From: Frankiales bacterium
GTDB taxonomy: Bacteria > Actinomycetota > Actinomycetes > Mycobacteriales > SCTD01
NCBI GenBank assembly: GCA_025465465.1
Contig: JAODND010000089.1
Coordinates: 85,336-149,335, forward strand
Length of the DNA: 64,000 nt
Direction: 5' to 3'
Positions 1,149-40,198 of the stretch are shown piece after piece (the stretch's first letter is position 1; every line of letters begins with the position of its first letter). Under the pieces are notes generated by a model. The model was not told the DNA's origin, made no database searches, and saw only the letters and a list, made by a program, of their open reading frames with translations. Made by a program: the position numbers and the translations under genes.

Positions 1149-2434
1149 CGTTGCTGCTGGATGTGGAGCTGCCCGAGGGCCGCTGTGACGTACGCGTCGA
1201 TGGCCGACTCGTCGTCGAGGTCGGTCAGTTGTCCCGAGCCGCCGGCGAGGAGGCGGTCAACGGCAACGGGGGGGCGCTCTTGCCCGGCCTCCATGACCAC
1301 CACCTCCATCTGCTCGCGACCGCGGCTGCTTCCGCCTCAGTCGACGTCCGCGATGGTCTGGGCCCTCTCGCTTCCGCCGGGGAGGGATGGCTGCGGGCCG
1401 TCGGCTGGTCGGGCGACGGGGATCGGCATGTCCTGGACGCGGTGCAGCGGCGGCGACCGGTGCGCGTCCAGCACGGCAGCGGCGCCCTGTGGGTGCTGAA
1501 CACCGAAGCGATCGGGCTGTTGCAGCTCGACCGCTCCGACCACCCCGGCGTGGAACGTGATGCCCACGGTCAGCCCACCGGACGGCTGTGGCGCGCGGAC
1601 GCCTTGCTGGGCGAGCTCTTGGGGCGGGAGACACCCGACCTGGCGGGGCTCGGGCTGCGCCTCGCACAGCTGGGCGTCACCGGGGTCACCGACGCCACAC
1701 CCGCCCTCGAGCCCGGTGCCGTACGACTCCTGCGTGCGAGCGTGCCGCAGAAGTTGCAGCTGCTCGGCGACGCAGTCGGCACCGGGCCCAGGAAGATCGT
1801 CATCGCTGATCATGCGCTGCCTTCCTACCCGGAGTTGGTGGCGCAGCTCCGCGACATCCGGCCGCGTGCGGCAGCGATCCATTGCGTCACCCGCGAGGCA
1901 CTGATCCTGCTGCTTGCAGCGATGGAGGAGGTCGGGACGATCCTCGGGGACCGCATCGAGCACGCGGCCGTCATCCCAGAGGAGTTGCTCGGCCACTTAC
2001 CGACGGTGGTCACTCAGCCGGGCTTCCTGACCTGCCATGGCGACAGGTATCGGGCGGAGGTCAGCGACGACGACCTGCCGGATCTCTACCGCTATCGCTC
2101 GGTACTGCAGGCCGGCGGTCACGTCGTCCCTTCCAGCGACGCCCCCTACGGACCGATCGACCCGTGGCAGGTGCTGCGCGCAGCCCGGGACCGCCGCGCA
2201 GCCAGCGGTGCTGTCCTCAGCCGGTTCGAGCGAGTTCCGGTCCGAGTCGCCCTCGACGGCATGCTGCGACCGCTGGCCGACCTCACAGCGCCCGCGCGGG
2301 CCGTCGTCGGCGGCGCGGTGGCCGATCTCGTGCTCCTGCACGTCCCGCGAGACGAGGCGCTCGACCATCCCGAGGCCGACAACGTTCGCTGCACGTGGAT
2401 CGACGGCGGCCTCGTCCACGGCGATCCCGGGTGA
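1145..2434 (+). CDS. Amidohydrolase family protein (Amidohydro_3-like)
   Basis: PGLHDHHLH metal motif, IHC, RIEHA, SSDAP; GTG at 1145 overlaps upstream TGA (GTGA). Confidence 0.85.
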   Translation: MTLLLDVELPEGRCDVRVDGRLVVEVGQLSRAAGEEAVNGNGGALLPGLHDHHLHLLATAAASASVDVRDGLGPLASAGEGWLRAVGWSGDGDRHVLDAVQRRRPVRVQHGSGALWVLNTEAIGLLQLDRSDHPGVERDAHGQPTGRLWRADALLGELLGRETPDLAGLGLRLAQLGVTGVTDATPALEPGAVRLLRASVPQKLQLLGDAVGTGPRKIVIADHALPSYPELVAQLRDIRPRAAAIHCVTREALILLLAAMEEVGTILGDRIEHAAVIPEELLGHLPTVVTQPGFLTCHGDRYRAEVSDDDLPDLYRYRSVLQAGGHVVPSSDAPYGPIDPWQVLRAARDRRAASGAVLSRFERVPVRVALDGMLRPLADLTAPARAVVGGAVADLVLLHVPRDEALDHPEADNVRCTWIDGGLVHGDPG

Positions 2435-3462
2435 ACGCCGTCGCCCCGCTCCTACGGCCGCATGAACTGGCCGGCTCGCGGCTGCTTGAGCTGGACTCAG
2501 ACGGGCTGCCGATGGCGCCCCTGCTGCTGGTCGACCTGTCCGCACCCGTCCCACCGGACGCCGTTGAGGTCGCCCGTGTGACTTCCAGAGTGCTGCTTGG
2601 CATCGCGCCCGGCGGCGTGCCAGATCACGCGCGACAGCTGAGCGAGGCGCTCACGTGCACCCTCGTGACGGGTGGCGCGTCCGCAAGATGCGAGGTCGAC
2701 GTCGACGACCTCGAACGCGCCCTCTCGACCCTGACCCGGCGGGTGGCCGAGACGCCGCGAGCGGCCAGTGTGCTGGTGAGCCTTTTGAGGCTGACGTCGG
2801 TGCTGCCGGTGCGACAAGCGCTGGAAACGGAGTCGCTGGCGTACTCGCTGCTACTCGGCGGGCCGGAGTTCGGCCGATGGCGTCTGTCTCGGCCACGTCG
2901 GGACGTGCCGGCAGAGGCCGGACCGGTCGTGCGGGTCGAACGAGCCGGTCGGCAGCTTCGGCTTGTGCTCGACCGGCCCGCACGTCACAACGCGTTCAAC
3001 CGCGAGATGCGCGACGCTCTCGTGGAGGCATTGCGTTTGGCCGTCGCCGACCCCGATCTGCAGGTTGGCATCTCCGGCACAGGTCCTTCGTTCTGCAGCG
3101 GAGGTGACCTCGACGAGTTCGGCACCGCGCAGGATCTCGTCCGCGCGCACCTCATCCGCACGGAGCGCAGCGCCGGGCTGCTGCTGCACCTGCTCCGCGA
3201 CCGAACCGACGTCCTTCTACACGGTGCTTGCATCGGTGCGGGCCTGGAGCTGCCGGCCTTTGCGGGGCGTGTGCGGTCCCGTCGGGACGCCAGCTTGCAG
3301 TTGCCCGAGCTGGCTATGGGTCTCGTGCCCGGCGCCGGAGGCACCGTCAGCGTCCTGCGCAGAATTGGCCGGTGGCGGACAGCGCACCTGGTCCTCACCG
3401 GAGAGCCGATCGACGCCGCGACGGCCCTGGCCTGGGGCCTCGTCGACACAGTCGAGGATTGA
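2431..3462 (+). CDS. Enoyl-CoA hydratase/isomerase with N-terminal extension
   Basis: FCSGGDL, GAGLE and PELAMG (both canonical Glu); GTG at 2431 overlaps upstream TGA. Confidence 0.88.
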   Translation: MNAVAPLLRPHELAGSRLLELDSDGLPMAPLLLVDLSAPVPPDAVEVARVTSRVLLGIAPGGVPDHARQLSEALTCTLVTGGASARCEVDVDDLERALSTLTRRVAETPRAASVLVSLLRLTSVLPVRQALETESLAYSLLLGGPEFGRWRLSRPRRDVPAEAGPVVRVERAGRQLRLVLDRPARHNAFNREMRDALVEALRLAVADPDLQVGISGTGPSFCSGGDLDEFGTAQDLVRAHLIRTERSAGLLLHLLRDRTDVLLHGACIGAGLELPAFAGRVRSRRDASLQLPELAMGLVPGAGGTVSVLRRIGRWRTAHLVLTGEPIDAATALAWGLVDTVED

Positions 3463-3512
3463 GATCCCCCTGGGGCGTCCGCGATGCCGGTGGCACTAGC
3501 GCGGGTCGGCTT

Positions 3513-3530
3513 TCTCGTAGAAAGTATACG
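3513..3530. promoter_or_regulatory. Putative GntR/FadR operator (motif 1)
   Basis: TCTCGTAGAAAGTATACG upstream of SDR; near-copy at 7813. Confidence 0.6.
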
Positions 3531-3563
3531 AAGCATCGCCGGTGATGCCCAGAAGGAGGACAC

Positions 3564-6996: not shown

Positions 6997-7809
6997 TTGA
7001 CCACAGGGAGACCGCCCGAGGGCGACTGGCTCGGCACGCCCTACCTCAGGTTCGACCGGCAGGGCGCCGTGGCACGTGTCGTGGTCGATCGGCCACAGGC
7101 GCGCAACGCGATGACGGGCGCCATGTACTTCGGCGTCCGCTATGCCGTCGACCTGGTCAACGGTGACGACGGGCTCGGAGGACTGCTGCTGACAGGGTCC
7201 GGCGACGTCTTCATCCCGGGCGGCGACCTGGGAGGCGACACCGTCGACGACTGGGGGGCGCCGGCCCTGCTCGGGTTGGACAACGTTCCCTTCGACGCCA
7301 TCCGGTACAGCCCCAAGCCGGTCGTGAGCGCCGTCAACGGCATCGCTCAGGGCGGTGGTCTGCTGATGGCGCTGCTCAGTGACGTCGCCGTGGCAAGCGA
7401 GCGGGCGACGTTTCGTGCCCCGGAGCTTCTCCGTGGCATCGCCGACACCGGCTACGCAGCCTTCCTGCCAGCTCAGATCGGGCCGGGGCGGGCGAAGGAC
7501 ATGCTCCTCACCGGCCGCGTCGTGACCGCTGCGGAGGCGCTGGACTGGGGACTGGTGACTCGCGTGGTGCCGCACGCCGAGGTCGAGGACGCCGCGCTGG
7601 AGGCGCTGCACGACTGCATGCGGATGGCTCCGCAGGCCTACGGTGAGGTCAAGCGCGTCATCTCCACCGCATACGGCGCCATCGACCGCATGACGATGCT
7701 GGACAGCCTTGCGGGCCCGGAGGCGCTCGAGGGCTGGACCGCCTTCAAGGAGCGCCGCGAGCCGGCCTGGATCCGCCCGGAACTGCCACCACGCAAGGGC
7801 CGCCGGTGA
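6997..7809 (+). CDS. Enoyl-CoA hydratase/isomerase family protein
   Basis: RNAM, FIPGGDL, KPVVSAVNG, APE, GPGRAKDMLLTG. Confidence 0.9.
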   Translation: MTTGRPPEGDWLGTPYLRFDRQGAVARVVVDRPQARNAMTGAMYFGVRYAVDLVNGDDGLGGLLLTGSGDVFIPGGDLGGDTVDDWGAPALLGLDNVPFDAIRYSPKPVVSAVNGIAQGGGLLMALLSDVAVASERATFRAPELLRGIADTGYAAFLPAQIGPGRAKDMLLTGRVVTAAEALDWGLVTRVVPHAEVEDAALEALHDCMRMAPQAYGEVKRVISTAYGAIDRMTMLDSLAGPEALEGWTAFKERREPAWIRPELPPRKGRR

Positions 7810-9822: not shown

Positions 9823-10653
9823 ATGCCGACCTATGCGCAGTTCACCACCCTCCAGGTCACCGTCGACTCGGGAGTGGCCGAGGTGGTGCTGGACCGGCCG
9901 AAGGCGCTGAACGCGTTCGACGAGGTGATGATCGAGGAGCTGCACAGCTGCTGGCGTGCCTTCCGCGGGGACGACGACGTCAGGGCCGTGGTCTTGACCG
10001 GATCAGGTGACAAGGCGTTCTGCACCGGGATCGACCGCAACGCGGCCCAGGTCGGCGTGGCCGGCCGACGTTCGGCCATCGGTCAGCAAGGGGCGACTCC
10101 GCTGCACTTCGATGATCCCGGTGAGCGCATCAGCCCGAAGTCCGGAGCCGACTTGTGGAAGCCAGTGGTCGCGGCAGTCAACGGGATGGCCTGCGGAGGC
10201 GCCTTCTACCTCCTCGGCGAGGTCGACGTCATCATCGCCGCCGAGCACGCGACCTTCTTCGACCCGCACGTCACCTATGGCATGGCGGCTGTCTTCGAGC
10301 CGATGGCCATGCTGCAGCGGATGCCGCTCGGTGAGGTGCTGCGCATGTCGCTGATGGGCGTCCATGAACGGGTGTCGGCCCAGCGCGCGCTGGACATCGG
10401 CCTGGTGTCCGAGGTCGTTCCCGCGGATGACCTGCGGGTGGCGGCGCGGCAGGTGGCCGCGGTCATTGCGGGCCAGCCGCCGCTGGCCGTGCAGATGACG
10501 GTGCGAGCGATCTGGCAGGCGCTGAATGTCGGCTATCGGCAGGCCCTCGACCTCGGCAAGGTGCTGGTCCAGCTGGGCAGCGACGAGGCATCGCTCGCCG
10601 AAGGACAGCAGCTGTTCGCTTCAGGTGCGCGGCCTTCGTACCGGCTGCGCTGA
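9823..10653 (+). CDS. Enoyl-CoA hydratase/isomerase family protein (DPH-type)
   Basis: KALNAF, FCTGID, KPVVAAVNG, FFDPHV. Confidence 0.9.
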   Translation: MPTYAQFTTLQVTVDSGVAEVVLDRPKALNAFDEVMIEELHSCWRAFRGDDDVRAVVLTGSGDKAFCTGIDRNAAQVGVAGRRSAIGQQGATPLHFDDPGERISPKSGADLWKPVVAAVNGMACGGAFYLLGEVDVIIAAEHATFFDPHVTYGMAAVFEPMAMLQRMPLGEVLRMSLMGVHERVSAQRALDIGLVSEVVPADDLRVAARQVAAVIAGQPPLAVQMTVRAIWQALNVGYRQALDLGKVLVQLGSDEASLAEGQQLFASGARPSYRLR

Positions 10654-10668: not shown

Positions 10669-11889
10669 TCAGCCGAGAGCGCCGGCCTGCTTCAGGGCGG
10701 CGACCCGAGCATCGTCGTAGCCGAGCAGGTCGCCGAGCACCTCGCGGGCGTGCTGGCCCGGCGTCGGCGCGTGCGCGGGGACGGGCAGGAGCTCGCCGTC
10801 GATGCGCACGGGGAACGGGATCTGCTCGGCACCCAGCAGCTCGGCCGGGATCCACGGCAGCCGCGCCTGGAACTGGGGGTCCAAGCCGATCTGCTCTGCG
10901 CTGTTCACGGGCGACAGCGGGACGTTTGCCTCAAGGCCGAGCCGGACCCACTCCTCGTTGGTGCGGGTCACGAACAGCGCGACGAGCTCCTTGCGCAGCG
11001 CGGTGTTGCCGCGGGCGTGATCGGCGTACTCGGCCCCGGGATGGGCCTCGAAGAGCTCGTCGCGACCTACGGCCGAGCAGAAGGACTTCCAGAACTTCCG
11101 TTCGCTCGCCTGGAACAGGACGTGTCCGTCAGCGCTGGCGTACATCTGGTAGCGCACGCTGTCGCGCATGCCGCCCGTGCCTGGCGCCCTGCGCTCATAG
11201 CCGTCAGTGGGATTGCCTGTGACCTCGTCCTCGGGTCGCTCGTAGGCCTTCCATGTCTCGATCGCCATCCAGTCGGTCGCCGCAGCGGCGTCGGACTGGG
11301 CGACGTCCAGGTGGCAGCCCTGCCCGGTGTCGCGGGCGCGGAGCACCGCGGCCAGCAAGGTGAGTGCGCCGTAGAGGGGGCCGGTGTGGATGCCGACGGA
11401 GCGGTGCGCAGGCATCGTGGGCAGCCCGTCGACGAGCTCGGGCCCGACGACGCCGGCCCACGCGTCGTAGGCCACGCCGTGCGTCGGCAGGTCACGGTAG
11501 GGGCCGCTGCCCCCGAAGCCGCTGATGGAGGCGAGCACGATGCGGGGGTTGATCTGCTGGAGCCGGGACAGGCCGAGCCCGCGGCGTTCGAGAGCTCCCG
11601 GCCGCATGGCCTCGACCACGGCGTCGGCATGCGAGACGAGGTCGAGGAAGACCTCGACGCCCTCCTCTGTCCGCAGGTCCAGGACCACGCTGCGCTTGCC
11701 TCGTCCGAGGTGGAGGTGCAGCAAGGACACCCCGTCGACGAACGGCCACACCATCTTGCGTATGTAGTCGCCGCCCGGCGGCTCGACCTTCACCACGTCC
11801 GCGCCCAGGTCGGCAAGATGCGTCGTCAAGGCCCCCGGTCCCAGCATGCTGACGTCGACGATGCGCAGTCCGTCGAGCAGGCCTGGCAC
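10669..11889 (-). CDS. Class III CoA-transferase-like protein (catalytic Asp apparently absent)
   Basis: LDGLRIVDVS, LADLGADVVKVE, GKRSVVLDLR, DAVVEAMRPG; GTG abuts upstream TAG. Confidence 0.88.
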   Translation of the reverse strand: MPGLLDGLRIVDVSMLGPGALTTHLADLGADVVKVEPPGGDYIRKMVWPFVDGVSLLHLHLGRGKRSVVLDLRTEEGVEVFLDLVSHADAVVEAMRPGALERRGLGLSRLQQINPRIVLASISGFGGSGPYRDLPTHGVAYDAWAGVVGPELVDGLPTMPAHRSVGIHTGPLYGALTLLAAVLRARDTGQGCHLDVAQSDAAAATDWMAIETWKAYERPEDEVTGNPTDGYERRAPGTGGMRDSVRYQMYASADGHVLFQASERKFWKSFCSAVGRDELFEAHPGAEYADHARGNTALRKELVALFVTRTNEEWVRLGLEANVPLSPVNSAEQIGLDPQFQARLPWIPAELLGAEQIPFPVRIDGELLPVPAHAPTPGQHAREVLGDLLGYDDARVAALKQAGALG

Positions 11890-13119
11890 CTAGAGCTCCA
11901 GGCCGAACAGCTTGATGGCGTTGCCCCGGGCGATCTTGTCGATCTGGTCCTGGGGGAGATGCCCGAACTGCAGGGCCGCGGCCTCCCGGGTGTCGGGCCA
12001 GGTGCTGTCCTGGTGCGGGTAGTCGGTCTCGAACAGGATGTTGTCCACGCCGACCTTGTCGAGCAGGTCGATGCCGACCGCATCCTTGAAGAAGCAGCTG
12101 TAGACCTGCCGGTAGTAGTAGGTCGAGGGCAGCTCCGGACAGTTGTCCTTGCCGTGCGCCCAGCCGCGGTGGGTGTGCCACACATCGTCTGCCCGCTCGA
12201 GCACGTAAGGGATCCAGCCGATCTGCGCCTCCGCATACATGAGCTTCAGCGTCGGGAAGCGGTGCAGGACCCCACTGAACAGGAAGTCGACGAGGCTGGC
12301 GGCGCTGTTGCCGAAGATGATCGTGCCCGCGACGGCCTCGGGTGCGTCGTCGGATGTCTGGGGCGTCTTCGTGCCGGAGCCGATGTGCATGCAGACGACG
12401 GTGCGGGTCTCCGCGCACGCGGCGAAGAACGGGTCCCAGTAACGGCTGTGGATGCTGGGCAGCCCCAGGTAGGCCGGGATCTCGCTGAACGCGACCGCAC
12501 GGACCCCGCGTGCCGCGTTGCGTCGCACCTCCCGCACCGCGAGCTCGACGTCCCAGAGCGGGACGATGCACAACGGCAGCAGGCGTCCACCGCTGTCGCC
12601 GCACCACTCCTCGACCATCCAGTCGTTGTAGGCCTGCACGGACATCAGCGACAGCTCCTTGTCCTTGCCCCACAGGAACATCTGACCGCAGAAGCGCGGG
12701 AAGTTCGGGAAGCACAGCTGTGCCTGCACGCCGTTGAGGTCCATGTCGGCGAGCCGCTCGACCGTCTGATAGCAGCCGGAACGCATGTTCTCGTAGGTCA
12801 CGCCTTGCATGCCGACCTCGTCGGCGGGGAAGCCGGCGGCGGCGATGTAGCGCTTCAGGCTGACCTGCCTGTCCTCGTAGAACCACCAGGCGACGTCGGG
12901 GCCGTCGGTCCCAGGCGCCTCGACGTACGACGAGCCGACGAGCTTCACGTCGCCGCCAGGGGCGTAGACGATCCTCGGGCCGACGTCGCGAAACCTTGCT
13001 GGGAGCCGGCTCGACCAGACGTCCCTCGGCTCGACGACGTGGGCGTCGACGTCGATGATCGGCGGGATCCGCAGCAATCGCGACTCCAGCACGTCCTGCT
13101 CGACAACCTGCTCCGACAT
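11890..13119 (-). CDS. Amidohydrolase family protein (Amidohydro_2-like)
   Basis: IDVDAHVVEP, MHIGSG, FETDYPHQDS; GGAGG RBS before ATG 13119. Confidence 0.9.
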   Translation of the reverse strand: MSEQVVEQDVLESRLLRIPPIIDVDAHVVEPRDVWSSRLPARFRDVGPRIVYAPGGDVKLVGSSYVEAPGTDGPDVAWWFYEDRQVSLKRYIAAAGFPADEVGMQGVTYENMRSGCYQTVERLADMDLNGVQAQLCFPNFPRFCGQMFLWGKDKELSLMSVQAYNDWMVEEWCGDSGGRLLPLCIVPLWDVELAVREVRRNAARGVRAVAFSEIPAYLGLPSIHSRYWDPFFAACAETRTVVCMHIGSGTKTPQTSDDAPEAVAGTIIFGNSAASLVDFLFSGVLHRFPTLKLMYAEAQIGWIPYVLERADDVWHTHRGWAHGKDNCPELPSTYYYRQVYSCFFKDAVGIDLLDKVGVDNILFETDYPHQDSTWPDTREAAALQFGHLPQDQIDKIARGNAIKLFGLEL

Positions 13120-14388: not shown

Positions 14389-15360
14389 GTGCACTTCGAC
14401 CTCGACGCCGGCCAGCGTGAGCTCCAGTCGGCCCTCACGCGGTTCTGCCACGACCTCTTCCCGGTAGCGGTCGCCCGCGAGTCGGGCGAGAAGGGTCTGG
14501 ACAGGGGGCTGTGGCGCAGGCTTGCCGACATGGGGGTCTTCGCGCTGGCACTCCCTGACAGCGACGGCGGCGCGGGCCTGACCGTCGTCGAGCAGGTGCT
14601 CGCCTTCGAGGTTCTCGGCGCGGGCCTCGTGCCCGGTCCCATCGTCGGGAGCACCCTGGCCGCCGGACTGGTCGAGGGTGCGAGCACAGGTGACGTGGTG
14701 GTCGCGGCCGTGACAGCCACGGACGGCCCGGTGCTCGTACCCGGGCTCCGTGACGCTGACTGGCTGCTCGTGCTGCACGACGACCGGGTGGAGCTCGTCG
14801 AGGCGGCAGGCATCCACGGTGACCTGGTTTCACGGCCACTGGATCCGACCAGTCCACTGACGCGCCTCGACGCGATTCCCTCCGGCGAGGTGCTCCTCCT
14901 CGGGGCGGCATCCGACGCGTTGTGCCGCACCGCGTCGCTGCTCACGTCCGCCGCCCTGCTCGGGATCGCGCGACGGACCACCGAGCTCGCGACCGACTAC
15001 GCGAAGACCCGCGAGCAGTACGGCCGGACGATCGGGTCCTTCCAGGCGATAAAGCACATGCTCGCCGACATGCTCGCGTTGGCCGAGGTCGCCAGCGCCT
15101 CCGTCCACGCGGCCGGTGTGATGCTGGCGGACACGAGTGCCGAAGCGGAGCGCGCCGTCGCCGGTGCCCGGGTGCTCGCCGGAAAGGCCGCGCTGCACAA
15201 CGCTGCCACCAACGTCCAGATCCACGGTGGCATGGGCTTCACCTGGGAGCTGGACGCCCACCTGTACCTCAAACGTGCGCGGCTGCTGTCGGTCAGCCAC
15301 GGAAACGTGGACGCCGCGGCCGAGACGGTCGCCACCCAGTTGCGAGGAGCGCTGCAGTGA
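14389..15360 (+). CDS. Acyl-CoA dehydrogenase, short partner subunit
   Basis: YAKTREQYGRTIGSFQAIKH, IHGGMGFTWE; lacks the SEPxAGSD motif; 323 aa; GTG 1 nt after upstream TGA. Confidence 0.9.
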   Translation: MHFDLDAGQRELQSALTRFCHDLFPVAVARESGEKGLDRGLWRRLADMGVFALALPDSDGGAGLTVVEQVLAFEVLGAGLVPGPIVGSTLAAGLVEGASTGDVVVAAVTATDGPVLVPGLRDADWLLVLHDDRVELVEAAGIHGDLVSRPLDPTSPLTRLDAIPSGEVLLLGAASDALCRTASLLTSAALLGIARRTTELATDYAKTREQYGRTIGSFQAIKHMLADMLALAEVASASVHAAGVMLADTSAEAERAVAGARVLAGKAALHNAATNVQIHGGMGFTWELDAHLYLKRARLLSVSHGNVDAAAETVATQLRGALQ

Positions 15361-24709: not shown

Positions 24710-24723
24710 GGCCACCTCCCTTC

Positions 24724-24738
24724 CATAATGTATACGTT
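24724..24738. promoter_or_regulatory. Putative GntR/FadR operator (motif 1)
   Basis: CATAATGTATACGTT in 51-bp divergent spacer. Confidence 0.62.
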
Positions 24739-24760
24739 GTGTCTCACCGCAGGAGGAACA

Positions 24761-26446: not shown

Positions 26447-27261
26447 CGTCCCCGCCTCTCGAGCCGCTCGTGGAGGGACTGCTGGTAGGCCGGGACGGGG
26501 CCCTGCTCGAGCTCGTCATCGACCGGCCGACGGCCAAGGGCAGCCTCAACGACGCCGTCGTCGCCGGCCTGATCGCGCAGTTGGAGCGTGCCTCGACCGA
26601 CCAGTCGCTGCGGGCTGTGCTGCTGCGCAGCTCAGGCGCCGACTTCTGCAGCGGCTTCGACATCGTGGGCCGCAACGCCGGGTCTGCCGAGCGGCCCCGC
26701 ACCGGCAGCATCCAGCGGCGGCTCCCGACGCAGGCACACCGCCTGGTCCCGCTGGTGCTGGGACTGCAGCTGCCGGTGGTCTGCGCCGTCCGCGGGTGGG
26801 CGGTCGGCATCGGTGCGCAGCTGGCCGCAGCGAGCGACCACGCCGTCGTCGCCGACGACGCGAGGTTCTGGTGGCCCTTCGTCGACCGCGGGTTCACCCC
26901 GGACTCCGCCAGCACCTGGCTGGTGCCGCGGCTGGTGGGGCCGGTCCGGGCGCGCGAGCTCCTGCTGCGCGGTCGGCGCCTGGACGGCGCGACCGCCGTT
27001 GAGTGGGGTCTCGTCGCGGAGGCGGCCCCCCCGGAGCAGGTGAACGCGCTGGCGCGTGAACGGGCGCAGGAGCTCGCGATGCGCGCCACGGTCGCGCTCG
27101 GCCTGACCAAGGCGTTGCTGGCAGCCGCGCCGGACAACACCCTCGAGCGTCATCTCGAGGCCGAAGCGATGGCCATGGAGCTGAGTTCACGCAGCCCGGA
27201 CTTCAAAGAGGGACTGCGCGCGTTTGTCGAGCGCCGACCACCGGACTTCAGCGGTCAGTAG
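26443..27261 (+). CDS. Enoyl-CoA hydratase/isomerase family protein
   Basis: FCSGFD, PVVCAVRG, RGFTPD, DFKEG; GTGA overlap. Confidence 0.88.
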   Translation: MTSPPLEPLVEGLLVGRDGALLELVIDRPTAKGSLNDAVVAGLIAQLERASTDQSLRAVLLRSSGADFCSGFDIVGRNAGSAERPRTGSIQRRLPTQAHRLVPLVLGLQLPVVCAVRGWAVGIGAQLAAASDHAVVADDARFWWPFVDRGFTPDSASTWLVPRLVGPVRARELLLRGRRLDGATAVEWGLVAEAAPPEQVNALARERAQELAMRATVALGLTKALLAAAPDNTLERHLEAEAMAMELSSRSPDFKEGLRAFVERRPPDFSGQ

Positions 27262-27265
27262 ACCG

Positions 27266-28087
27266 TCAAGAAAGACCTCTCACAGACCAGATCGGCTCAC
27301 GCTTCTCGCTGAACGCGAGAGGACCCTCGGTCTGGTCCGGGTGCCCCCACACCGAGACCAGCTCCTGCACGCCGGCCTTGCAGGCGTCGGTGAGGCCGCG
27401 CTCGAGGGCTCCCCACAGCGCGCGCTTGGTCGCGGCCAACGCGGCCGGGCTGTTGAGCGCGATCTTCTCGGCGAGTTCCTGCGCGGCTTCGTGCAGCCGT
27501 TCCGGCGGATCGACGACCTCACTGACCATGCCGAGTTCGAAGGCGCGGGCAGCGGACAGCCGCTCGTACCTGCCGACGAGAGCCATCCGCAGGACGGCCT
27601 CAGCGGGCATCTTGCGCATGAGCCCGATCGTCTCGACGGCGCTCACCTGTCCCACCGATACGTGCGGGTCGAGGAAGCTCGCGTCGGAGGCGGCGAGCAC
27701 GATGTCGGCGTCGGCCACGAAGTGCAGACCGCCCCCCGCGCACGCGCCGTTGACGGCCGCGATCACGGGCTTCCACACCCCGAGGTGCCAGGCGGTGAAC
27801 CCCAGGTCCCATGCCTCCAGCGACGTGCGGTAGCGCTCCATCCCGACGCCGTCGGTGGCGAGCTCCACGACGTCGGCGCCGGTCTGGAAGTCGCGTCCTT
27901 GTCCGCCGTTGACGATGACGCGCACCTCCGGGTCGGCGTCGAGGACGTTCCAGGCCTTCCGGAGCTCGTCGCGCATGCCGTTGTTCATCGCGTTGCGACG
28001 CTCCGGCCGGGCGAACAGGATCCACCCGACCCGGCCTCGACGCTCCACGACCAGGGTGTCGAACCCGTCGTAGCTGTGGACTGTCAT
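27266..28087 (-). CDS. Enoyl-CoA hydratase/isomerase family protein (DPH-type)
   Basis: RRNAMN, FQTGAD, KPVIAAVNG, FLDPHV; ATGA overlap. Confidence 0.9.
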   Translation of the reverse strand: MTVHSYDGFDTLVVERRGRVGWILFARPERRNAMNNGMRDELRKAWNVLDADPEVRVIVNGGQGRDFQTGADVVELATDGVGMERYRTSLEAWDLGFTAWHLGVWKPVIAAVNGACAGGGLHFVADADIVLAASDASFLDPHVSVGQVSAVETIGLMRKMPAEAVLRMALVGRYERLSAARAFELGMVSEVVDPPERLHEAAQELAEKIALNSPAALAATKRALWGALERGLTDACKAGVQELVSVWGHPDQTEGPLAFSEKREPIWSVRGLS

Positions 28088-32059: not shown

Positions 32060-32785
32060 GTGACGGAGGGCCTGCTGGTCCGACGCGAAGGGCCGGTCGG
32101 TTGGCTCGTGTTCGACCGCCCCGAAGCCGGAAATGCGATGGATGCGGCCATGATGGAGGCGCTCCCGGCAGCCTGGTCCGACCTCGACGAGGACGCCGAC
32201 GTGCGGTGCATCGTGGTCACCGGCAACGGCAGCTCCTTCCAGACCGGCCTGGACGTCAAGCAGCTCAGCCGGGACCCCGCGGCGTTGAAGGCGATGTCGC
32301 GCCGGACGCGCGCCAACGACCTGCGGCTGACGGCAGTCCACTGCGGTGTGCAGAAGCCGGTCGTCACGGCGGTCAACGGCGTCTGCGCAGGTGGGGGTCT
32401 GCACTTCGTCGTCGACAGCGATCTGGTTCTCGCGAGCACGACAGCGTCCTTCCTCGATCCGCACGTGTCGCTCGGTCAGGTGAGCGCCTTCGAGGGGATC
32501 GGCCTGGCCCGGCGAGCGGCCTTCGGCGACGTGGCCCGCATGGTGCTGACCGGCGTCCATGCGAGGGTCACCGCGGAGCGCGCCCTCCAGCTCGGCTGGG
32601 TGGGCGAGGTCGTGCCGCCGGACGCCTTGCGGCAGCGGGCCCAGCACATCGCTGAGCAGGTCGCCGCCAACGACCCGACGGCGGTGCGCCACCGGCGGTG
32701 GGCGTTGTGGGCAGCGCTGGAAGACGTGGACGTCCGACGGGTGCGGTTGGCGACTGCTGGACCGACTGCCGGAGACGCAGCATGA
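32060..32785 (+). CDS. Enoyl-CoA hydratase/isomerase family protein (DPH-type)
   Basis: GNAMD, FQTGLD, KPVVTAVNG, FLDPHV; close paralogue of 27266-28087. Confidence 0.88.
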   Translation: MTEGLLVRREGPVGWLVFDRPEAGNAMDAAMMEALPAAWSDLDEDADVRCIVVTGNGSSFQTGLDVKQLSRDPAALKAMSRRTRANDLRLTAVHCGVQKPVVTAVNGVCAGGGLHFVVDSDLVLASTTASFLDPHVSLGQVSAFEGIGLARRAAFGDVARMVLTGVHARVTAERALQLGWVGEVVPPDALRQRAQHIAEQVAANDPTAVRHRRWALWAALEDVDVRRVRLATAGPTAGDAA

Positions 32786-34068
32786 CGAGCGGCAATGCAA
32801 GGGCGGAGCTCGAGTCGTGCGAGACCGCCGCTGACGTCGCCGAGGCGGTGCAGCGCTGGCTTGCCGCAGGGGTGCCCGCGCACTGGCGCGATGCCGCGGA
32901 ACGCGGAGGACCGTCGGCCGTGCGGGAGGTGCGGACACCGGAGGACTACCGCGGCTGGTATCCAGCCTTCGCCGCAACCGGCCTCGTCGTGCCGCAGTGG
33001 CCGACCCCCTACGGCGGTCTCGGGTGGGACCGCCGGCTGGCGAAGGCCGCAGAGCAGGTCCTGTCCCGCTATCACCTGCCGAGGCTCAACCCGCTCGGGC
33101 TCAACCTGGTGGCGCCGGCCCTGTTCGCGCATGGCACCGAGGATCAGCGCCTGCGGTATCTGCCGCCCATCGTGGACAACCGTGAGGTCTGGTGCCAGCT
33201 CTTCAGCGAGCCTGGGGCAGGGAGCGACTTGGCCTCTCTGGCGACGCGCGCTGTGCGGGCCGGCGACAGCTGGCGCATCACCGGTCAGAAGGTGTGGACG
33301 ACCTGGGCGCACCTTGCGGACTGGGGGGTGCTGCTCGCCCGAACAGACCCCGACGTCCCCAAGCGCCAGGGCATCAGCTATTTCCTCGTCGACATGCGCA
33401 GTCCGGGCATCGAGGTGCGTCCACTGCGCCACATCGGCGGCGAAGTGGACTTCAACGAGGTCTTCCTCGACGACGTGGTCGTTCCCGACCGCCAGCGCGT
33501 CGGTGACGTCCACGGCGGCTGGGCAGTGGCCCGCGCGACCCTGTCGGGTGAGCGGCAGATGGTCAGTGGCGCCGGCTCCGGTGGCGTCGACCGGATCGGC
33601 GGTAGCGGCGCCGGCCGGCTGCTCCGGCTCGCACAGGACCGCAGCGCGGCGGGACTTCCCGGGGGCTGGGACGACCCGTTGGTGCGCGACACGCTCGTCC
33701 GGCTGTGGATGGAGGAGCAGATCCGGTCGTGGACGAACGGCCGCGTGCGCGAGGGCCTCAAGGCGGGCCTGGCTCCCGGCCCGGAGAGCTCGATCGGCAA
33801 GGTCGCCGGCAGTGAGTTGAACCAGCGCATCCAGGCGGCCGCGGCCGACCTGCTCGGGGCGGACGCGACCGCCTGGGAGGGCGCGCAGGGCAGCTATGCC
33901 GAGCACATGCCTGCCGAGGTCCGCGGCATGCTGCGCAGCCGCGCCAACACGATCGAAGGGGGCACTTCGGAGGTGAACCGCACCATCCTGGCTGAGCGTG
34001 TGCTTGGCCTGCCCAAGGACCCGGACCCGTGGGAGGGCCGTCCTTGGCGCGAGGTCCCGAGAGGCTGA
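32782..34068 (+). CDS. Acyl-CoA dehydrogenase (catalytic-type subunit)
   Basis: WCQLFSEPGAGSDL, GQKVWT, TLSGER, TIEGGTSE, ERVLGLP; ATGA overlap. Confidence 0.93.
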   Translation: MTSGNARAELESCETAADVAEAVQRWLAAGVPAHWRDAAERGGPSAVREVRTPEDYRGWYPAFAATGLVVPQWPTPYGGLGWDRRLAKAAEQVLSRYHLPRLNPLGLNLVAPALFAHGTEDQRLRYLPPIVDNREVWCQLFSEPGAGSDLASLATRAVRAGDSWRITGQKVWTTWAHLADWGVLLARTDPDVPKRQGISYFLVDMRSPGIEVRPLRHIGGEVDFNEVFLDDVVVPDRQRVGDVHGGWAVARATLSGERQMVSGAGSGGVDRIGGSGAGRLLRLAQDRSAAGLPGGWDDPLVRDTLVRLWMEEQIRSWTNGRVREGLKAGLAPGPESSIGKVAGSELNQRIQAAAADLLGADATAWEGAQGSYAEHMPAEVRGMLRSRANTIEGGTSEVNRTILAERVLGLPKDPDPWEGRPWREVPRG

Positions 34069-34100
34069 CGACGTCGCCTGCGGGCGCGAGAGGAGAACTG

Positions 34101-35252
34101 GTGGAGGACGCAGACGTGCGTGCCGTCGTGACGGCGGTGCGTCGGCTGGTGCGGGAGCGTGTGGTGCCGCTCGAGCAGCAGATCGACGAGACCGACGAGG
34201 TGCCCGGCGAGCTGCGCCAGGCCGCGGCTGACATGGGCCTGTTCGGGTTCGCGCTCCCTGAGGAGCACGGGGGCCTGGGCCTGTCCATGTCGCAGGAGGC
34301 GCTTCTCGTGATGGAGCTCGGTTGGACGACTCCGGCGTTTCGCTCCCTGTTCGGGACCAACAACGGCATCGCCGGGCACACCGTGAGCGAGGGCGGGACC
34401 GACCAGCAGAAGAAGGAGTGGCTGCCGAAGATCGCCAGTGGTGAGTGGACGGCATCCTTCGCACTGACGGAGGCCGAAGCGGGCAGCGATCCCGCCGGAC
34501 TGCGTACGACCGCGGTGCGGGAGGGTGACTGCTACGTGCTGACCGGCGCGAAGCGCTACATCACCAACGCGCCCGTGGCCGACGTGCTGCTCGTCTTCGC
34601 CAGGCACGGGCAGCACACCGACGCGAGCCGGGACGTCTCGGCCTTCCTCGTGCCACGGAACGCTCCGGGTCTGTCCGTCGGTCCGCGGGATCACAAGATG
34701 GGCCAGCATGGCGCGATGTCTGCCGAGGTGTTCCTCGATGACGTGCGCGTGCCGGCGTCGGCCCTGGTCGGCGAGGTCGAGGGCGAGGGCTATCGCACCG
34801 CGATGAGGAGTCTCGCGCACGGTCGTCTGCACATCGCGGCCCTGTGCGTCGGCATGGCGCAGCGGCTCCAGCGGGAGACAGTGCAGTACGCCCTCGCGCG
34901 GCAGCAGGCAGGTCATCCGATTGCCGACTTCCAGCTCATCCAGGGTCTCGTCGCGGACAGCCAGACCGATGTCGAAGCAGGTCGCGCGCTGCTGATGTCT
35001 GCCTGCGAGGCCTACGACAGTGGCGCAGACCGGCGGATGCTGCCGTCGTGCGCCAAGTACTTCTGCAGCGAGATGGTCGGTCGCGTCGCCGACCGGGCCG
35101 TCCAGGTCCACGGCGGCGCCGGTTACATGCGCGGCGTCGCTGTCGAGCGCTTCTACCGCGACGCCCGTCTGTTCCGAATCTACGAAGGGACCAGTCAAGT
35201 GCAGCAGGTGGTGATCGCCAAGCAGGCGTTCGCGCGGGCGGGCCAGGCATGA
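34101..35252 (+). CDS. Acyl-CoA dehydrogenase (homotetrameric type)
   Basis: FALTEAEAGSD, GAKRYITN, VHGGAGYM, RIYEGTS; GAGGAG RBS before GTG 34101. Confidence 0.93.
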   Translation: MEDADVRAVVTAVRRLVRERVVPLEQQIDETDEVPGELRQAAADMGLFGFALPEEHGGLGLSMSQEALLVMELGWTTPAFRSLFGTNNGIAGHTVSEGGTDQQKKEWLPKIASGEWTASFALTEAEAGSDPAGLRTTAVREGDCYVLTGAKRYITNAPVADVLLVFARHGQHTDASRDVSAFLVPRNAPGLSVGPRDHKMGQHGAMSAEVFLDDVRVPASALVGEVEGEGYRTAMRSLAHGRLHIAALCVGMAQRLQRETVQYALARQQAGHPIADFQLIQGLVADSQTDVEAGRALLMSACEAYDSGADRRMLPSCAKYFCSEMVGRVADRAVQVHGGAGYMRGVAVERFYRDARLFRIYEGTSQVQQVVIAKQAFARAGQA

Positions 35253-36715
35253 GCGAGCTGGTCACCGAGCCACGGATGCTCATCGACGGCAAGCTCGCCC
35301 CCGCGCTGTCCGGTCGTAGCTTTGCCAACGTCAACCCCGCCACCGAAGAGGTGCTCGGCACCGTGGCTGACGGCTCGGCCGAGGACATGGACGCTGCGAT
35401 CGACGCAGCCCGGACCGCGTTCGACCGGAGCGGGTGGGCCGACGACCTCGACCTGCGGATCCGTTGCCTGCGCCAGCTCGAGGAAGCACTCACCAAGCAT
35501 GCCGACGAGTTCCGAGCCACCGTTGTCGCGGAGGTCGGCTGTCCGGTGAGCCTCACCCGCATGGCGCAGTACGACACACCCGTCAAGGGCATCGGCTGGG
35601 TCGCCGACCTGGCCGGCTCCTACGCATGGGAGAGCTCACTGGGGCAGAGCGAGGCCTTCGGCATCCGTACCGAACGCACCTTGCGGCGGGAGCCGGCCGG
35701 CGTGGTCGGCGCGATCACCCCCTGGAACTTCCCCGTCCAGATCAACCTCGCGAAGGTGGCTCCCGCGCTGGCGGCAGGCTGCACGGTCGTCCTCAAGCCG
35801 GCACCGGACACGCCGTACTCCGCAACGCTTCTCGGCCGGGTGGCGGCGGAGGAGACCGAGCTGCCGCCTGGCGTGCTGAACGTGGTCACCTCCGCCGGCC
35901 ATGAGGTCGGCCAGCAGCTGTCCGAGGATCCGCGGGTCGATCTGATCTCGTTCACCGGGTCGACAGCAACCGGACGGCGCGTCGTGCAGGCGAGCGCCGG
36001 CAACCTCAAGAAGGTGTTTCTCGAGCTCGGTGGGAAGTCCGCCCACATCGTGCTGGACGACGCCGACCTGAGCGCAGCTGCCTTCGCCGCGGCCTTCCAG
36101 ATCATGGTGCATTCGGGGCAGGGCTGTGCCATCACGACGCGGTTGCTGCTGCCCCGGTCCCGCTACGACGAGGGAGTGGACGCCCTGGTCGAGATGATGA
36201 GGTCCATCCCCTACGGCGACCCCACCGATCCGGCGACGCTCGGCGGGCCGCTCATCCGTGAGCAGCAGCGCCAGCGGGTGCTGTCCTACATCCGCACCGG
36301 CGTCGAGGAGGGCGCCAGGATCGCCCTCGGCGGCGGCGTTCCGGCGCACCTGCCGAAGGGCTTCTATGTCGAGCCGACTGTGCTCGTCGAGGTCGACAAC
36401 GCGTCGACCGTCGCCCAGGAGGAGATCTTCGGGCCCGTCCTCGTCGTGATCGCCCACGACGGCGACGACGATGCCGTGCGGATCGCGAACGACTCGGCGT
36501 ACGGGCTGTCCGGCGCGATCACCAGCAGTGACACGGAGCGCGCCATGGCGGTCGCGCGCCGCATCCGCACCGGAACGATTGCCGTCAACGGCGGCGTGTA
36601 CTACGGACCTGACGTTCCGTTCGGCGGATACAAGCACAGTGGCGTCGGACGTGAGTCAGGCGTGCTCGGCTTCGAGGAGTACCTCGAAGCCAAGGTCATC
36701 GCCGGGGCGTGCTGA
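35249..36715 (+). CDS. Aldehyde dehydrogenase
   Basis: ITPWNFP, FTGST, LELGGKS, GQGC catalytic Cys, EEIFGPV; ATGA overlap. Confidence 0.95.
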   Translation: MSELVTEPRMLIDGKLAPALSGRSFANVNPATEEVLGTVADGSAEDMDAAIDAARTAFDRSGWADDLDLRIRCLRQLEEALTKHADEFRATVVAEVGCPVSLTRMAQYDTPVKGIGWVADLAGSYAWESSLGQSEAFGIRTERTLRREPAGVVGAITPWNFPVQINLAKVAPALAAGCTVVLKPAPDTPYSATLLGRVAAEETELPPGVLNVVTSAGHEVGQQLSEDPRVDLISFTGSTATGRRVVQASAGNLKKVFLELGGKSAHIVLDDADLSAAAFAAAFQIMVHSGQGCAITTRLLLPRSRYDEGVDALVEMMRSIPYGDPTDPATLGGPLIREQQRQRVLSYIRTGVEEGARIALGGGVPAHLPKGFYVEPTVLVEVDNASTVAQEEIFGPVLVVIAHDGDDDAVRIANDSAYGLSGAITSSDTERAMAVARRIRTGTIAVNGGVYYGPDVPFGGYKHSGVGRESGVLGFEEYLEAKVIAGAC

Positions 36716-37503
36716 TGGACGGCGTCGGTGGCCTGCGCGCGATCATCGCCGGTGCGTCGTCAGGGGTCGGCAGAGCGGTCGCGCTGCGCCTGGTGAAGGC
36801 TGGCGCGGACGTCCTCCTCGTGGGACGGGACGCCGACCGTCTGAAGGAGCTGCAGTACGCGGCCGGCGGCGGAGACGTGCTGGCGACCGATCTCAGCCTC
36901 CCGGACGGCGCCGAGCGGCTCATGGCCGCACTGGGCGACCGTCCCGTTGAGCTGCTCGTGAGCACCGTCGCTGTCGCCCCGCTGGCCTTCCTCGCCACCA
37001 CGACCCGGGCGCAGTGGGAGAACGCCCTCACCACCAACGTCATCGGTACCGCGTCGTTGTTGCAGGCCGTCGTCCCGCGGATGGCTCCGGCCGGCCTGCT
37101 CGCGGTCGTCTCGTCGGAGAGCGTCGGCCAGCACCGCACGGGTCTCGGCGCCTACGCCGCCAGCAAGGCGGCGCTCGAGGACATGATGGGCACCTGGCGC
37201 ACCGAGCACCCTGGCCTGCGCTTCACCACGGTCGCGCTCGGTGGAACCATGCCGACCGCGTTCTCCCAGGGCTTCGCCCCCGAGGTCGCGGCCGTCGCGG
37301 TGAACGACTGGGCCAGCCGCGGCCACATCCAGGAGCAGCTCATGCACACCGACGACGTGGCGGACGTCCTCACGGGGGTGCTCGTCTCCCTGATCGGGGC
37401 ACCGGGGGTGGGCGTTCCCCGCATCGAGCTCGCCTCGCCCTCAGCGGTGGCCGGCACGACCGCCCATCTCCGCAAGGTCGAGCAGCCCGTGACCCGCACA
37501 TGA
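36715..37503 (+). CDS. SDR family oxidoreductase
   Basis: GASSGVG, YAASK; TGATG overlap. Confidence 0.87.
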   Translation: MDGVGGLRAIIAGASSGVGRAVALRLVKAGADVLLVGRDADRLKELQYAAGGGDVLATDLSLPDGAERLMAALGDRPVELLVSTVAVAPLAFLATTTRAQWENALTTNVIGTASLLQAVVPRMAPAGLLAVVSSESVGQHRTGLGAYAASKAALEDMMGTWRTEHPGLRFTTVALGGTMPTAFSQGFAPEVAAVAVNDWASRGHIQEQLMHTDDVADVLTGVLVSLIGAPGVGVPRIELASPSAVAGTTAHLRKVEQPVTRT

Positions 37504-38231
37504 GTAACGACAAGGTCTACATCCACGAGTACATCGACATCACCAAGCAGGGCCGCGCGAAGTACATGCACCACATGACGGCCAACTGGAGCCCCCTGGC
37601 CCAGGAGCAACGAGGTCAGCTCTGCTACGGCGTGTGGGGCACGGTGGGGTCAACGGGCCGCTGGCCCCAGGTCGTGAACCTGTGGGAGGAGGACGGGTGG
37701 GACGGGCTGACCTCGTCGTTCGCCCACGAGCTCGCCGATCCCTCGCTGCAGGACCCGGCCCTGGCCACGTGGTGGGCGACCGCCGCTGACCTCCGCAGCG
37801 GCGGCGTGGACCGCATCCTCGTGCCACATCCCAGCACGCGGACCATCGAGGAGCTGTGTCGCGCGAGCACGACCTACGCCGCGTACGCCCACGAGATGCT
37901 GACGGTAGAGCCCGGCCGAGCCGACGAGTTTCTCGACCTGGCCGTGGACGGCGTCGGCGAGGCGTCGGACAGCGGGTGGGTGCTCATCGGGGCCTTCCGC
38001 ACCGCGATGCGCCATGACGAAGAGGCCCTGCTGCTGTGGGGAATCCCGGACTGGCCGAGCTGGGGCAAGGCTGAGCGGCGCATGGCGGAAAGGGCCGCGG
38101 ACGCGGTCCCTTCGGCAGCGCGAGAGCTGCTGCGGTCGCGCGAGCGGATCCTGCTCGTCGACGCACCGCTCTCGCCGTTGCGCACGCACCGCCAGCCGCA
38201 CCGTGAGGACCGCACCGGTTGGCAGGACTGA
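37500..38231 (+). CDS. NIPSNAP-like (dimeric alpha-beta barrel) protein
   Basis: Two repeated beta-alpha halves (YIHEYID...GVWGTVG..WPQVVNLWE; YAHEML...GAF...LLLW); resembles actinobacterial proteins I recall as NIPSNAP family; ATGA overlap. Confidence 0.6.
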   Translation: MSNDKVYIHEYIDITKQGRAKYMHHMTANWSPLAQEQRGQLCYGVWGTVGSTGRWPQVVNLWEEDGWDGLTSSFAHELADPSLQDPALATWWATAADLRSGGVDRILVPHPSTRTIEELCRASTTYAAYAHEMLTVEPGRADEFLDLAVDGVGEASDSGWVLIGAFRTAMRHDEEALLLWGIPDWPSWGKAERRMAERAADAVPSAARELLRSRERILLVDAPLSPLRTHRQPHREDRTGWQD

Positions 38232-39413: not shown

Positions 39414-39431
39414 GTCGCGATCCCTCCCCAG

Positions 39432-39447
39432 TGTTGTATACAACATA
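39432..39447. promoter_or_regulatory. Putative GntR/FadR operator (motif 1, perfect palindrome)
   Basis: TGTTGTATACAACA perfect 14-bp palindrome in divergent spacer. Confidence 0.75.
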
Positions 39448-39466
39448 CGTGAAGGTGCGAAGCAGG

Positions 39467-40198
39467 ATGGACGACAACGGCGTGGCCTACGTGGAACTGG
39501 ATGACGCGGACAAGGCCAACGCCCTCGACAAGCGGCTGAGCGACGAGTTGGCGGACGCGGTGGCGGCTGCGGTGTCGGGCGGGGCTCGGGTGCTCGTGCT
39601 GTCGGCGTGCGGACCGGTCTTCTGTGCGGGCGGGTCGCTGATCGGCCTGCTCAAGCCGCAGCATCCGCTGTCAGCGCTGTACGCGGGCGTCGAGGCGCTC
39701 AGCGCCTGCTCGCTGCCGACGATCGCCCTGGTCGACGGAGCTGCGGTCGGCGCCGGTGTCACGCTGCCTCTCGCATGTGACGTGATCATCTGCACGCCTC
39801 GCGCCCGCTTCGACCCGCGCTTCCTCGACATCGCCATCCACCCTGGCGGCGGCCATCTGTGGCGGCTCGCCGGTCGGATAGGGGTCCAGGGAGCGGCGGC
39901 CCTGGTCCTGTTCGGCGACGAACTCGACGGCGAGGAGGCCGAGAGGGCTGGCTTGGCGTGGCGCTGCCTTCCGGCCGAGGAAGCGCGGGCCTTCGTCGAC
40001 CGCCTTGCCGTCCGGGCTGCGGGCCGACCGGCGGCGCTCGTGCGGCGCACGAAGCAGACCCTGCACGACAGCGCCCCGCTGCCGAACGCGACTGAGGCGG
40101 CCGTCCTGGAGCTGGCGGCGCAGGAGTGGTCGGTCCGGCAGCCGGAGCACCGACGGGCAGTGGAGGCACTCGCCGCTCGGTTCGGTCTCCCGGTCTAG
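39467..40198 (+). CDS. Enoyl-CoA hydratase/isomerase family protein
   Basis: KANALD, FCAGGSL, PTIALVDG, IHPGGG; alternative GTG start at 39449. Confidence 0.87.
   Translation: MDDNGVAYVELDDADKANALDKRLSDELADAVAAAVSGGARVLVLSACGPVFCAGGSLIGLLKPQHPLSALYAGVEALSACSLPTIALVDGAAVGAGVTLPLACDVIICTPRARFDPRFLDIAIHPGGGHLWRLAGRIGVQGAAALVLFGDELDGEEAERAGLAWRCLPAEEARAFVDRLAVRAAGRPAALVRRTKQTLHDSAPLPNATEAAVLELAAQEWSVRQPEHRRAVEALAARFGLPV

Follow-up and report, generated by a model that had tools for sequence, protein, structure and literature searches.

Why do seven of eight crotonase-fold proteins encoded close together in an actinomycete genome lack the two catalytic glutamates of enoyl-CoA hydratases, and what might they do in their place? 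The eight genes lie on a stretch of 64,000 nucleotides (hereafter the window; positions 85,336 to 149,335 of contig JAODND010000089.1) from a Frankiales bacterium (assembly GCA_025465465.1), whose genome comprises 3.85 Mb on 115 contigs, is roughly 90% complete and has a G+C content of 70%. The nearest public loci bear labels of actinomycete metagenome-assembled genomes. Our best explanation, to which we assign a probability of about 0.6, is that the eight proteins are real, functional paralogues recruited into one large conserved catabolic gene set, and that the missing glutamates represent specialisation and not decay. Each substitution pattern is conserved in orthologues, and the sites are therefore taken to be specialised. 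Read residue by residue, this one catabolic island would use at least five active-site classes, differing chemistries that routine 'enoyl-CoA hydratase' labels on crotonase paralogues hide.

Simple lists of open reading frames (ORFs) are uninformative at 70% G+C; genes were called from third-position GC (GC3). Frames and strands around 30710-32785 were set by the phase-specific GC profile, which resolved this region into a minus-strand gene (30710-31978) and a divergent plus-strand crotonase gene (32060-32785). The two catalytic positions, here called positions 1 and 2, are the equivalents of Glu144 and Glu164 of rat enoyl-CoA hydratase (ECH) and were taken from a joint MAFFT alignment of the eight proteins. 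A second route was provided by pairwise HMMER alignments to the solved hydratases 3R0O, 5Z7R and 3RSI, which have glutamate at both positions (E/E), and to PaaG (6SLB, 4FZW_C). As a working definition, crotonases were called DPH type if they have D-x-H at the second catalytic position and a glutamate ten residues later (+10) and keep the CoA-type motifs. The eight genes, named below by their approximate start positions, are as follows.

2431..3462, plus strand: E/E crotonase-related protein of 343 aa, E273/E293 (MAFFT), with an extra N-terminal part of ~160 aa and no C-terminal helices.
6997..7809, plus strand: single-Glu crotonase, L123/E143 (MAFFT and HMMER).
9823..10653, plus strand: DPH type of a third clade, Y129/H149 (MAFFT and HMMER), with D147 and E159; 3TLF match 3e-44.
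15357..16193, plus strand: PaaG-like crotonase, H132/F152 and a catalytic-type Asp160 (MAFFT and HMMER).
26443..27261, plus strand: PaaG-like crotonase, Q126/F146 and Asp154 (MAFFT and HMMER), with a 4-nt overlap with a FadD3-family ligase gene.
27266..28087, minus strand: DPH1, H122/H142 (MAFFT and HMMER) with D140-P-H142, Q147 and E152; ECH_1, 3TLF match 5e-50.
32060..32785, plus strand: DPH2, a short paralogue of 241 aa, H115/H135 (MAFFT) with D133 and E145.
39431..40198, plus strand: T/F crotonase, T111/F131 (MAFFT and HMMER), with Gly at the PaaG Asp position and D128, R130, D133, H137 and H142.

All eight ORFs match Pfam ECH_1 (PF00378) with E values of 6e-23 to 5e-54 (82-184 bits versus a cut-off of 27). 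Fold, oxyanion hole and CoA-binding motifs are shared with the rat and human hydratase ECHS1 (1DUB, 2HW5), which ranks high among the PDB matches for several of them. Unlike in ECHS1, the canonical Glu144/Glu164 pair (EC 4.2.1.17) is present in only one of the eight, 2431, and that protein is without the C-terminal helical domain; the other seven are complete or nearly so. The residues at both positions are, in all eight proteins, exactly those listed by the original prediction, which had been made from the sequence alone, and the motif it described as FxDPH with a Glu about ten residues later is real, with Glu at exactly +10 in 9823, 27266 and 32060. Its start of the T/F gene at 39467 had to be corrected, the gene spanning 39431-40198. 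An artefact of alignment or gene calling, with proper alignment restoring the glutamate pairs, was suggested by the 70% G+C and the many overlapping ORFs, among them a 755-aa opposite-strand shadow ORF that masks 32060 in a naive ORF list. However, no re-alignment restored any pair: pairwise profile alignments with solved structures leave no doubt about the residue positions, the GC3 profile supports frames and strands, and the same residues recur in hundreds of orthologues. The artefact explanation is refuted by these three lines of evidence, and its probability is negligible.

The rarity that the original prediction implied for a missing glutamate pair was not supported. The genome has 24 ECH_1 genes, only five of them E/E, and the other 19 include further types such as a MenB-like S/D and an EchA20-like G/E; the non-E/E share is 7/8 in the window and 12/16 in the remainder of the genome (Fisher p = 0.63). 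The number of missing glutamates is ordinary for the superfamily and, by itself, has no special significance. Eight of the 24 genes lie within 64 kb, or 1.7% of the genome (P = 3e-9), ten are on the window's contig, and all three DPH types of the genome sit in the window.

In hydratases, the residues at positions 1 and 2 activate water and protonate the alpha carbon, but the absence of the pair does not exclude hydratase activity because AtuE, LiuC and ThnL are hydratases with a single glutamate (PMC13689101). It is accordingly conceivable, although we regard it as doubtful, that all eight proteins, the DPH types included, are enoyl-CoA hydratases or dehydratases that use other acid/base residues (His pairs, a single Glu or substrate-assisted catalysis) on bulky or carboxylated substrates, and that the island serves a beta-oxidation of many cycles. 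Apart from the proven single-Glu hydratases, the richness of the island in acyl-CoA dehydrogenases, short-chain dehydrogenases/reductases (SDRs) and thiolases is in line with this explanation, and the geometry of positions 1 and 2 suits the addition of water to C=C as well as to C=O. Against it, four to six distinct crotonases per conserved module exceed the need for hydration steps. Further evidence on both sides is given below with the proteins concerned.

By sequence, the DPH types are a real and very strongly conserved branch of the superfamily, in which no characterised member was found. The tree and the conservation counts are based on clade members from 80 fetched related loci; the tree has one clade each for DPH1 and DPH2 and a small third one with 9823. 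The tetrad H122-D140-H142-E152 is invariant in 145/145 DPH1 and DPH2 sequences and Y-D-H-E is found in 4/4 members of the 9823 clade, all 149 clade members conforming to the working definition. A wider profile search of 1.84 billion cluster representatives yielded 2,890 matches at E<=1e-30; most of the best 150 of these (50%-identity representatives), which were inspected, also conform, the constant core among them being D-x-H…E(+10), with position 1 variable (H > Y > L, N, D, Q, A). No NCBIfam model reached its cut-off for the DPH types, the best being EchA19 with 175 bits versus 400. The best PDB match of all three DPH types, by a wide margin, is 3TLF (next ~1e-35 for DPH1 and ~1e-24 for 9823), a structural-genomics entry from Mycobacterium paratuberculosis titled only 'enoyl-CoA hydratase/isomerase', and no paper discussing it was found in a literature search. 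3TLF has the same FFDPHVSIG...E(+10) motif, length and fold as the DPH types, but has Asp at position 1, in contrast to His or Tyr in DPH1, DPH2 and 9823, is only ~40% identical (Foldseek/VIA) and falls into a clade other than DPH1 and DPH2. The proposal that the three DPH-type paralogues are a distinct subfamily is borne out by the unreached cut-offs, the nearest structure and the invariant tetrad.

The AlphaFold2 model of DPH1 (pLDDT 91) has an ordinary crotonase fold. A VIA structure search with this model had 1000 crotonase chains among the matches listed, all at Z >8 and the top 50 at Z 27.5-31; 3TLF came only 48th despite being closest in sequence, so that the fold is confirmed and no subfamily placement follows from the listing. 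6-oxocamphor hydrolase is not in that top 50, which carries no weight either way. The CoA-type and oxyanion motifs are invariant in the DPH alignment (R27, P28, N32, A33, F67, G70, D72 and G118, i.e. RP…NA, F-x-x-G-x-D and GG), and the substrate of DPH1 and DPH2 should therefore be a CoA thioester. DPH1 is 70-98% identical across Acidimicrobiia, Mycobacteriales, Streptosporangiales, Streptomyces, Micromonosporales and Microbacteriaceae and is always full length. DPH2, in contrast, is C-terminally short in about half of the genomes (223-245 aa, ~30-45 residues fewer). It shows no sign of a frameshift, and a frameshifted gene or pseudogene was ruled out for 32060, since no C-terminal continuation exists in another frame and the short form is conserved elsewhere. 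The DPH class is among the most conserved proteins of a cluster common to Streptomyces, Actinomadura, Thermomonospora, Mycobacterium and many Acidimicrobiia. Outside the window, contig C21 of the same assembly encodes at 41573-42241 (plus strand) a crotonase of ~300 aa with the motif 'FFADPVV…E', in which the Asp and +10 Glu of the DPH motif are present but no histidines; in the tree it branches next to, but not within, the DPH clade, and it could represent an evolutionary intermediate or a further variant.

The DPH1 and DPH2 genes belong to two divergent putative operons, in each of which every junction is an overlap of 4 nt: on the minus strand double hot-dog protein, IpdE2-like acyl-CoA dehydrogenase, AMP-ligase and DPH1, and on the plus strand DPH2, two acyl-CoA dehydrogenases, an aldehyde dehydrogenase, an SDR and a NIPSNAP-like protein. 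Their members, together with other parts of the conserved cluster, are:

30710-31978, minus strand: double hot-dog protein of 422 aa, FAS1_DH/MaoC-like according to the ESM Atlas.
29571-30713, minus strand: IpdE2-like acyl-CoA dehydrogenase (IpdE2 model 224 bits, below cut-off).
28084-29574, minus strand: AMP-ligase, between the IpdE2-like acyl-CoA dehydrogenase and DPH1.
32782..38231, plus strand: the two acyl-CoA dehydrogenases, aldehyde dehydrogenase, SDR and NIPSNAP-like protein downstream of DPH2.
37500-38231, plus strand: NIPSNAP-like protein of 243 aa, placed by the ESM Atlas.
24554..26446, plus strand: FadD3-family acyl-CoA ligase (NCBIfam NF005801, 726 bits versus a cut-off of 657).
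10669..13119, minus strand: family III CoA-transferase-like protein and Amidohydro_2 protein, conserved in the same cluster of other actinomycetes.

The products of 30710-31978 and 37500-38231 had no Pfam, NCBIfam or useful PDB sequence match. To examine the neighbourhoods of orthologues, all window proteins were compared by local tblastn with the 80 loci, 54 of which are long, and the gene order around DPH1 recurs in most of the long loci. In Streptosporangiales and Streptomyces, acyl-CoA dehydrogenase and DPH2 genes stand divergent to the series hot-dog, acyl-CoA dehydrogenase, ligase, DPH1, PaaG-like, family III CoA-transferase-like, FadD3-like and SDR. The order in Acidimicrobiia is hot-dog, PaaG-like, acyl-CoA dehydrogenase, DPH2, DPH1 and ligase, often accompanied by a crotonase of the 6997 type, whose orthologue adjoins the hot-dog/DPH module there, and by the NIPSNAP-like gene. 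In one Streptomyces locus, 9823, 15357, 6997 and the Amidohydro_2 gene have orthologues as well; orthologues are 62-66% identical for the CoA-transferase-like protein and 67-81% for the Amidohydro_2 protein (11890-13119). From these recurring neighbourhoods it follows that a single conserved functional set includes six or more of the eight crotonases. For tandem DPH2 and DPH1 genes the junction measures -10 to +2 nt in 26 of 37 pairs, mostly as an overlap of 4 or 1 nt.

Positions 1 and 2 sit on either side of the alpha and beta carbons of the acyl-CoA in the active site, a geometry that also suits the hydrolytic cleavage of a beta-keto acyl-CoA. In DPH1, His122 and His142, each with a carboxylate partner (Asp140 and Glu152, respectively), probably take over the base and acid roles of the glutamate pair, and these His-carboxylate pairs would add water at the beta carbon of the CoA ester. 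Judged by the coupled or tandem genes and by a DPH2 that often is without the C-terminal helices, DPH1 and DPH2 probably work as a hetero-oligomer. Fused two-domain DPH representatives from the wider search (P0241, P0297, P0370) were rejected as evidence for such a complex, as one domain lacks the motif or appears to be frame-shifted.

For the reaction itself we tentatively prefer the hydrolysis of a C-C bond in a beta-keto ring CoA ester, because a pathway paralogous to that of the steroid C/D rings needs such steps and the cluster has neither EchA20 nor IpdAB, which carry them out there. It is nearly as likely that an unusual enoyl-CoA, probably a carboxylated one, is hydrated or dehydrated, and isomerase, decarboxylase or thioesterase activity is possible. 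In its most specific form, in which DPH1 and DPH2 would be a histidine-based hetero-oligomer that opens a carbocyclic beta-keto-acyl-CoA ring, or carries out another C-C cleavage, in place of EchA20 and IpdAB, the proposal as a whole is rather unlikely. If true, it would mean a new catalytic solution in the superfamily and an undescribed, widespread pathway of Actinomycetota parallel to steroid C/D-ring (HIP) degradation, which would handle another abundant cyclic isoprenoid-derived acid.

Several observations weigh against C-C cleavage by DPH1 and DPH2. We found no enzyme of the DPH clade with an assigned reaction or substrate. Compared with MenB, BadI and EchA20, the E/E hydratases (3R0O, human and rat ECHS1; E 1e-35 to 1e-29) are nearer to the DPH proteins in sequence, which favours a hydratase-like chemistry over a Dieckmann-type cleavage. 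Ring opening could fall to the Amidohydro_2 proteins of the cluster, in which a MaoC-type hydratase is also present, and the hetero-oligomer is deduced from the arrangement of the genes. A comparison by description with C-C hydrolases of the superfamily, in contrast, lends some support to the preferred reaction: 6-oxocamphor hydrolase (OCH) and EchA15-type crotonases (3QK8, 3Q1T, 7M3W) also have a His at position 2, with D-P before it and a carboxylate partner some residues downstream, and are proposed or shown to catalyse retro-Claisen C-C hydrolysis. Spacing and partner differ, however, with His-x8-Asp in these enzymes and His-x9-Glu in the DPH types, and the match of EchA15 structures to DPH1 is no better than E 1e-19. 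The substrate of OCH is a free diketone, unlike the CoA ester suggested by the motifs of the DPH proteins. OCH belongs to the crotonase family as a beta-diketone hydrolase (PMC11780191).

The nearness of the DPH proteins to canonical E/E enzymes, second only to that to 3TLF, also speaks for the explanation that all eight are hydratases. To our knowledge, on the other hand, there is no His/His hydratase, and a dedicated double hot-dog hydratase is already coupled to DPH1. Naming the DPH reaction would identify a step, and probably the substrate, of a soil carbon pathway that is widespread and akin to the degradation of steroid fragments, and DPH chemistry could add a new catalytic motif to a well-studied superfamily.

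The two crotonases that keep a PaaG-type aspartate, 15357 and 26443, are in all likelihood PaaG-like double-bond isomerases, judged by their conserved site residues, and not PaaG itself. The best PDB match of 15357 is Thermus PaaG (6SLB, 3e-42), with Asp160 aligned to D136, and that of 26443 is E. coli PaaG (4FZW_C, 4e-43), with Asp154 aligned to the PaaG Asp; the aspartate originally placed at a PaaG-like position in both proteins is confirmed by this match to Thermus Asp136 and the corresponding E. coli residue. H, F and D are invariant in 9/9 orthologues of 15357. Among the orthologues of 26443, F and D are invariant in 57/57, and position 1 is Q, N or H. Both proteins share with PaaG, the 1,2-epoxyphenylacetyl-CoA isomerase (4FZW_C; 6SLA/6SLB), the non-acidic residues at both glutamate positions and the catalytic Asp. 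They remain, however, at 186.8 (15357) and 164.5 bits (26443) below the equivalog cut-off of the PaaG model TIGR02280 (345 bits), and no PaaABCDE or PaaZ domains occur among the genes of the window; they are read as PaaG-like because of these scores and the missing paa context. Unlike PaaG, they are partnered with acyl-CoA dehydrogenases or a FadD3-family ligase: the 15357 gene, with two acyl-CoA dehydrogenase genes before it and an ADP-forming acyl-CoA synthetase gene after it, is part of a coupled series, and 26443 overlaps the ligase gene. The isomerase Asp and the Phe at position 2 kept in all orthologues of both proteins are difficult to reconcile with hydratase activity throughout the island.

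For the single-Glu crotonase 6997, in contrast, hydratase activity has precedents. The equivalent of Glu164 is kept and that of Glu144 is a non-acidic, hydrophobic residue, and in its orthologues (n = 10) position 1 is M, L or V and position 2 is E in 10/10. Eukaryotic delta3,delta2-enoyl-CoA isomerases are also single-Glu enzymes, and by analogy isomerase activity is as possible for 6997 as hydratase activity. AtuE (4ZU2), LiuC and ThnL, hydratases of carboxylated enoyl-CoAs, have the same pattern (PMC13689101); they are, however, not close sequence relatives of 6997, whose best PDB matches are the E/E proteins 3RSI and 3R0O.

The T/F protein 39431 represents, by its site residues, a further active-site class for which no described member was found; it scores 203 bits against NCBIfam PRK05870 (cut-off 285). 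The loop ARFDPRFLD-x-G-IHPGGGH is 98-100% conserved in its family, with N, S or T at position 1 and F at position 2. This protein and the short DPH2 are the foremost candidates for a different explanation, according to which some of the paralogues are non-catalytic, either EchA6-like carriers or structural partners. The PDB matches of 39431 include EchA6 structures (3e-19), its residues at the two catalytic positions and at that of the PaaG Asp are all non-acidic, and DPH2 is short by ~30-45 C-terminal residues in many genomes. We nevertheless regard this as quite improbable: the putative site residues of 39431 (D128, R130, F131, D133, H137, H142) are 98-100% conserved in 114 homologues, and the full H-D-H-E set is found in every DPH2 orthologue, which is expected of catalytic or very specific binding residues. 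Taking the absence of conserved catalytic-type loop residues as the working mark of an EchA6-like carrier, 39431 is not one, and the 'non-catalytic carrier' among the roles originally considered misfits this protein.

The only E/E protein, 2431, deviates from ECHS1 in its architecture. Its ECH_1 match covers residues 179-341 (profile positions 10-173 of 251), and its crotonase core, residues 163-343, ends at 'WGLVD' before the C-terminal helical domain. No continuation of 2431 was found in other frames, and the same architecture is kept in 120 homologues of ~345 aa (including Streptomyces, Actinomadura and Pseudonocardia), by which a frameshift or pseudogene was ruled out. E/E is invariant across 60 aligned members of the family. 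In the AlphaFold2 model (pLDDT 95.6), only residues 163-343 superpose on crotonases (residues 1-185, Z ~22). The N-terminal helices, conserved in the family as …LLR.T…ES..YS.LL.G.EF..W, resemble the absent C-terminal ones and may replace that domain by circular permutation. The gene is preceded by an Amidohydro_3 gene and a family III CoA-transferase gene.

As to the substrate, the organism probably degrades steroid fragments by means of a canonical KstR2-type steroid C/D-ring (HIP) cluster on contig C21 (~27100-38800). This cluster encodes a pimC/IpdE1-like and an IpdE2-like acyl-CoA dehydrogenase, a FabK-like IpdC, two unnamed genes at the ipdAB position, a PRK07831 SDR (425 bits), an EchA20-type crotonase (NF005925/PRK07938, 404 bits versus a cut-off of 260) and a FadD3-like ligase, to which the FadD3-family ligase of the window is 52% identical. 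EchA20, the crotonase that opens ring D, groups with MenB (PMC5380842). All eight window proteins stay below the EchA20 cut-off, the best being 32060 with 106.8 bits versus 260, and a MenB-type crotonase with S/D at the two positions is encoded on contig C61. The window has in common with the EchA20, MenB and BadI systems the proposed role (beta-keto ring opening) and the context of a FadD3-like ligase and an IpdE-like dehydrogenase, but none of its eight crotonases falls in their clade. Given the ligase and dehydrogenase types shared with contig C21, and neither EchA20 nor IpdAB, the window cluster looks like a paralogous pathway, and its substrate is probably a branched or ring-bearing, isoprenoid- or steroid-fragment-like CoA-activated acid. 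The 'toolkit for ring or branch chemistry' of the original prediction is plausible in this context, which fits with its FadD3-family ligase, IpdE2-like dehydrogenase, P450, Amidohydro_2 proteins and acyl-CoA carboxylase. A steroid ring-A beta-diketone hydrolase is an enzyme of the Amidohydro_2 family (PMC11780191), and by analogy the Amidohydro_2 proteins of the window are candidate C-C hydrolases or lactonases.

The remainder of the window encodes thiolases, SDRs, a P450, Amidohydro_2 proteins, family III CoA-transferase-like proteins and an acyl-CoA carboxylase. Another Amidohydro_2 protein is encoded at 55421-56497 (minus strand), with further paralogues on the window's contig (C72) and on contig C99. 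A 782-aa protein with two tandem family III CoA-transferase domains is encoded at 56538-58886 (minus strand), next to the P450 gene (58963-60180); the DPH cluster of Actinomadura and related genera, too, has this P450 conserved at its side. The genes at 61307-63999 (plus strand), which run past the end of the window, code for the carboxyltransferase and biotin carboxylase subunits of an acyl-CoA carboxylase, and by analogy with the Atu and Liu pathways this carboxylase suggests the removal of beta-methyl branches.

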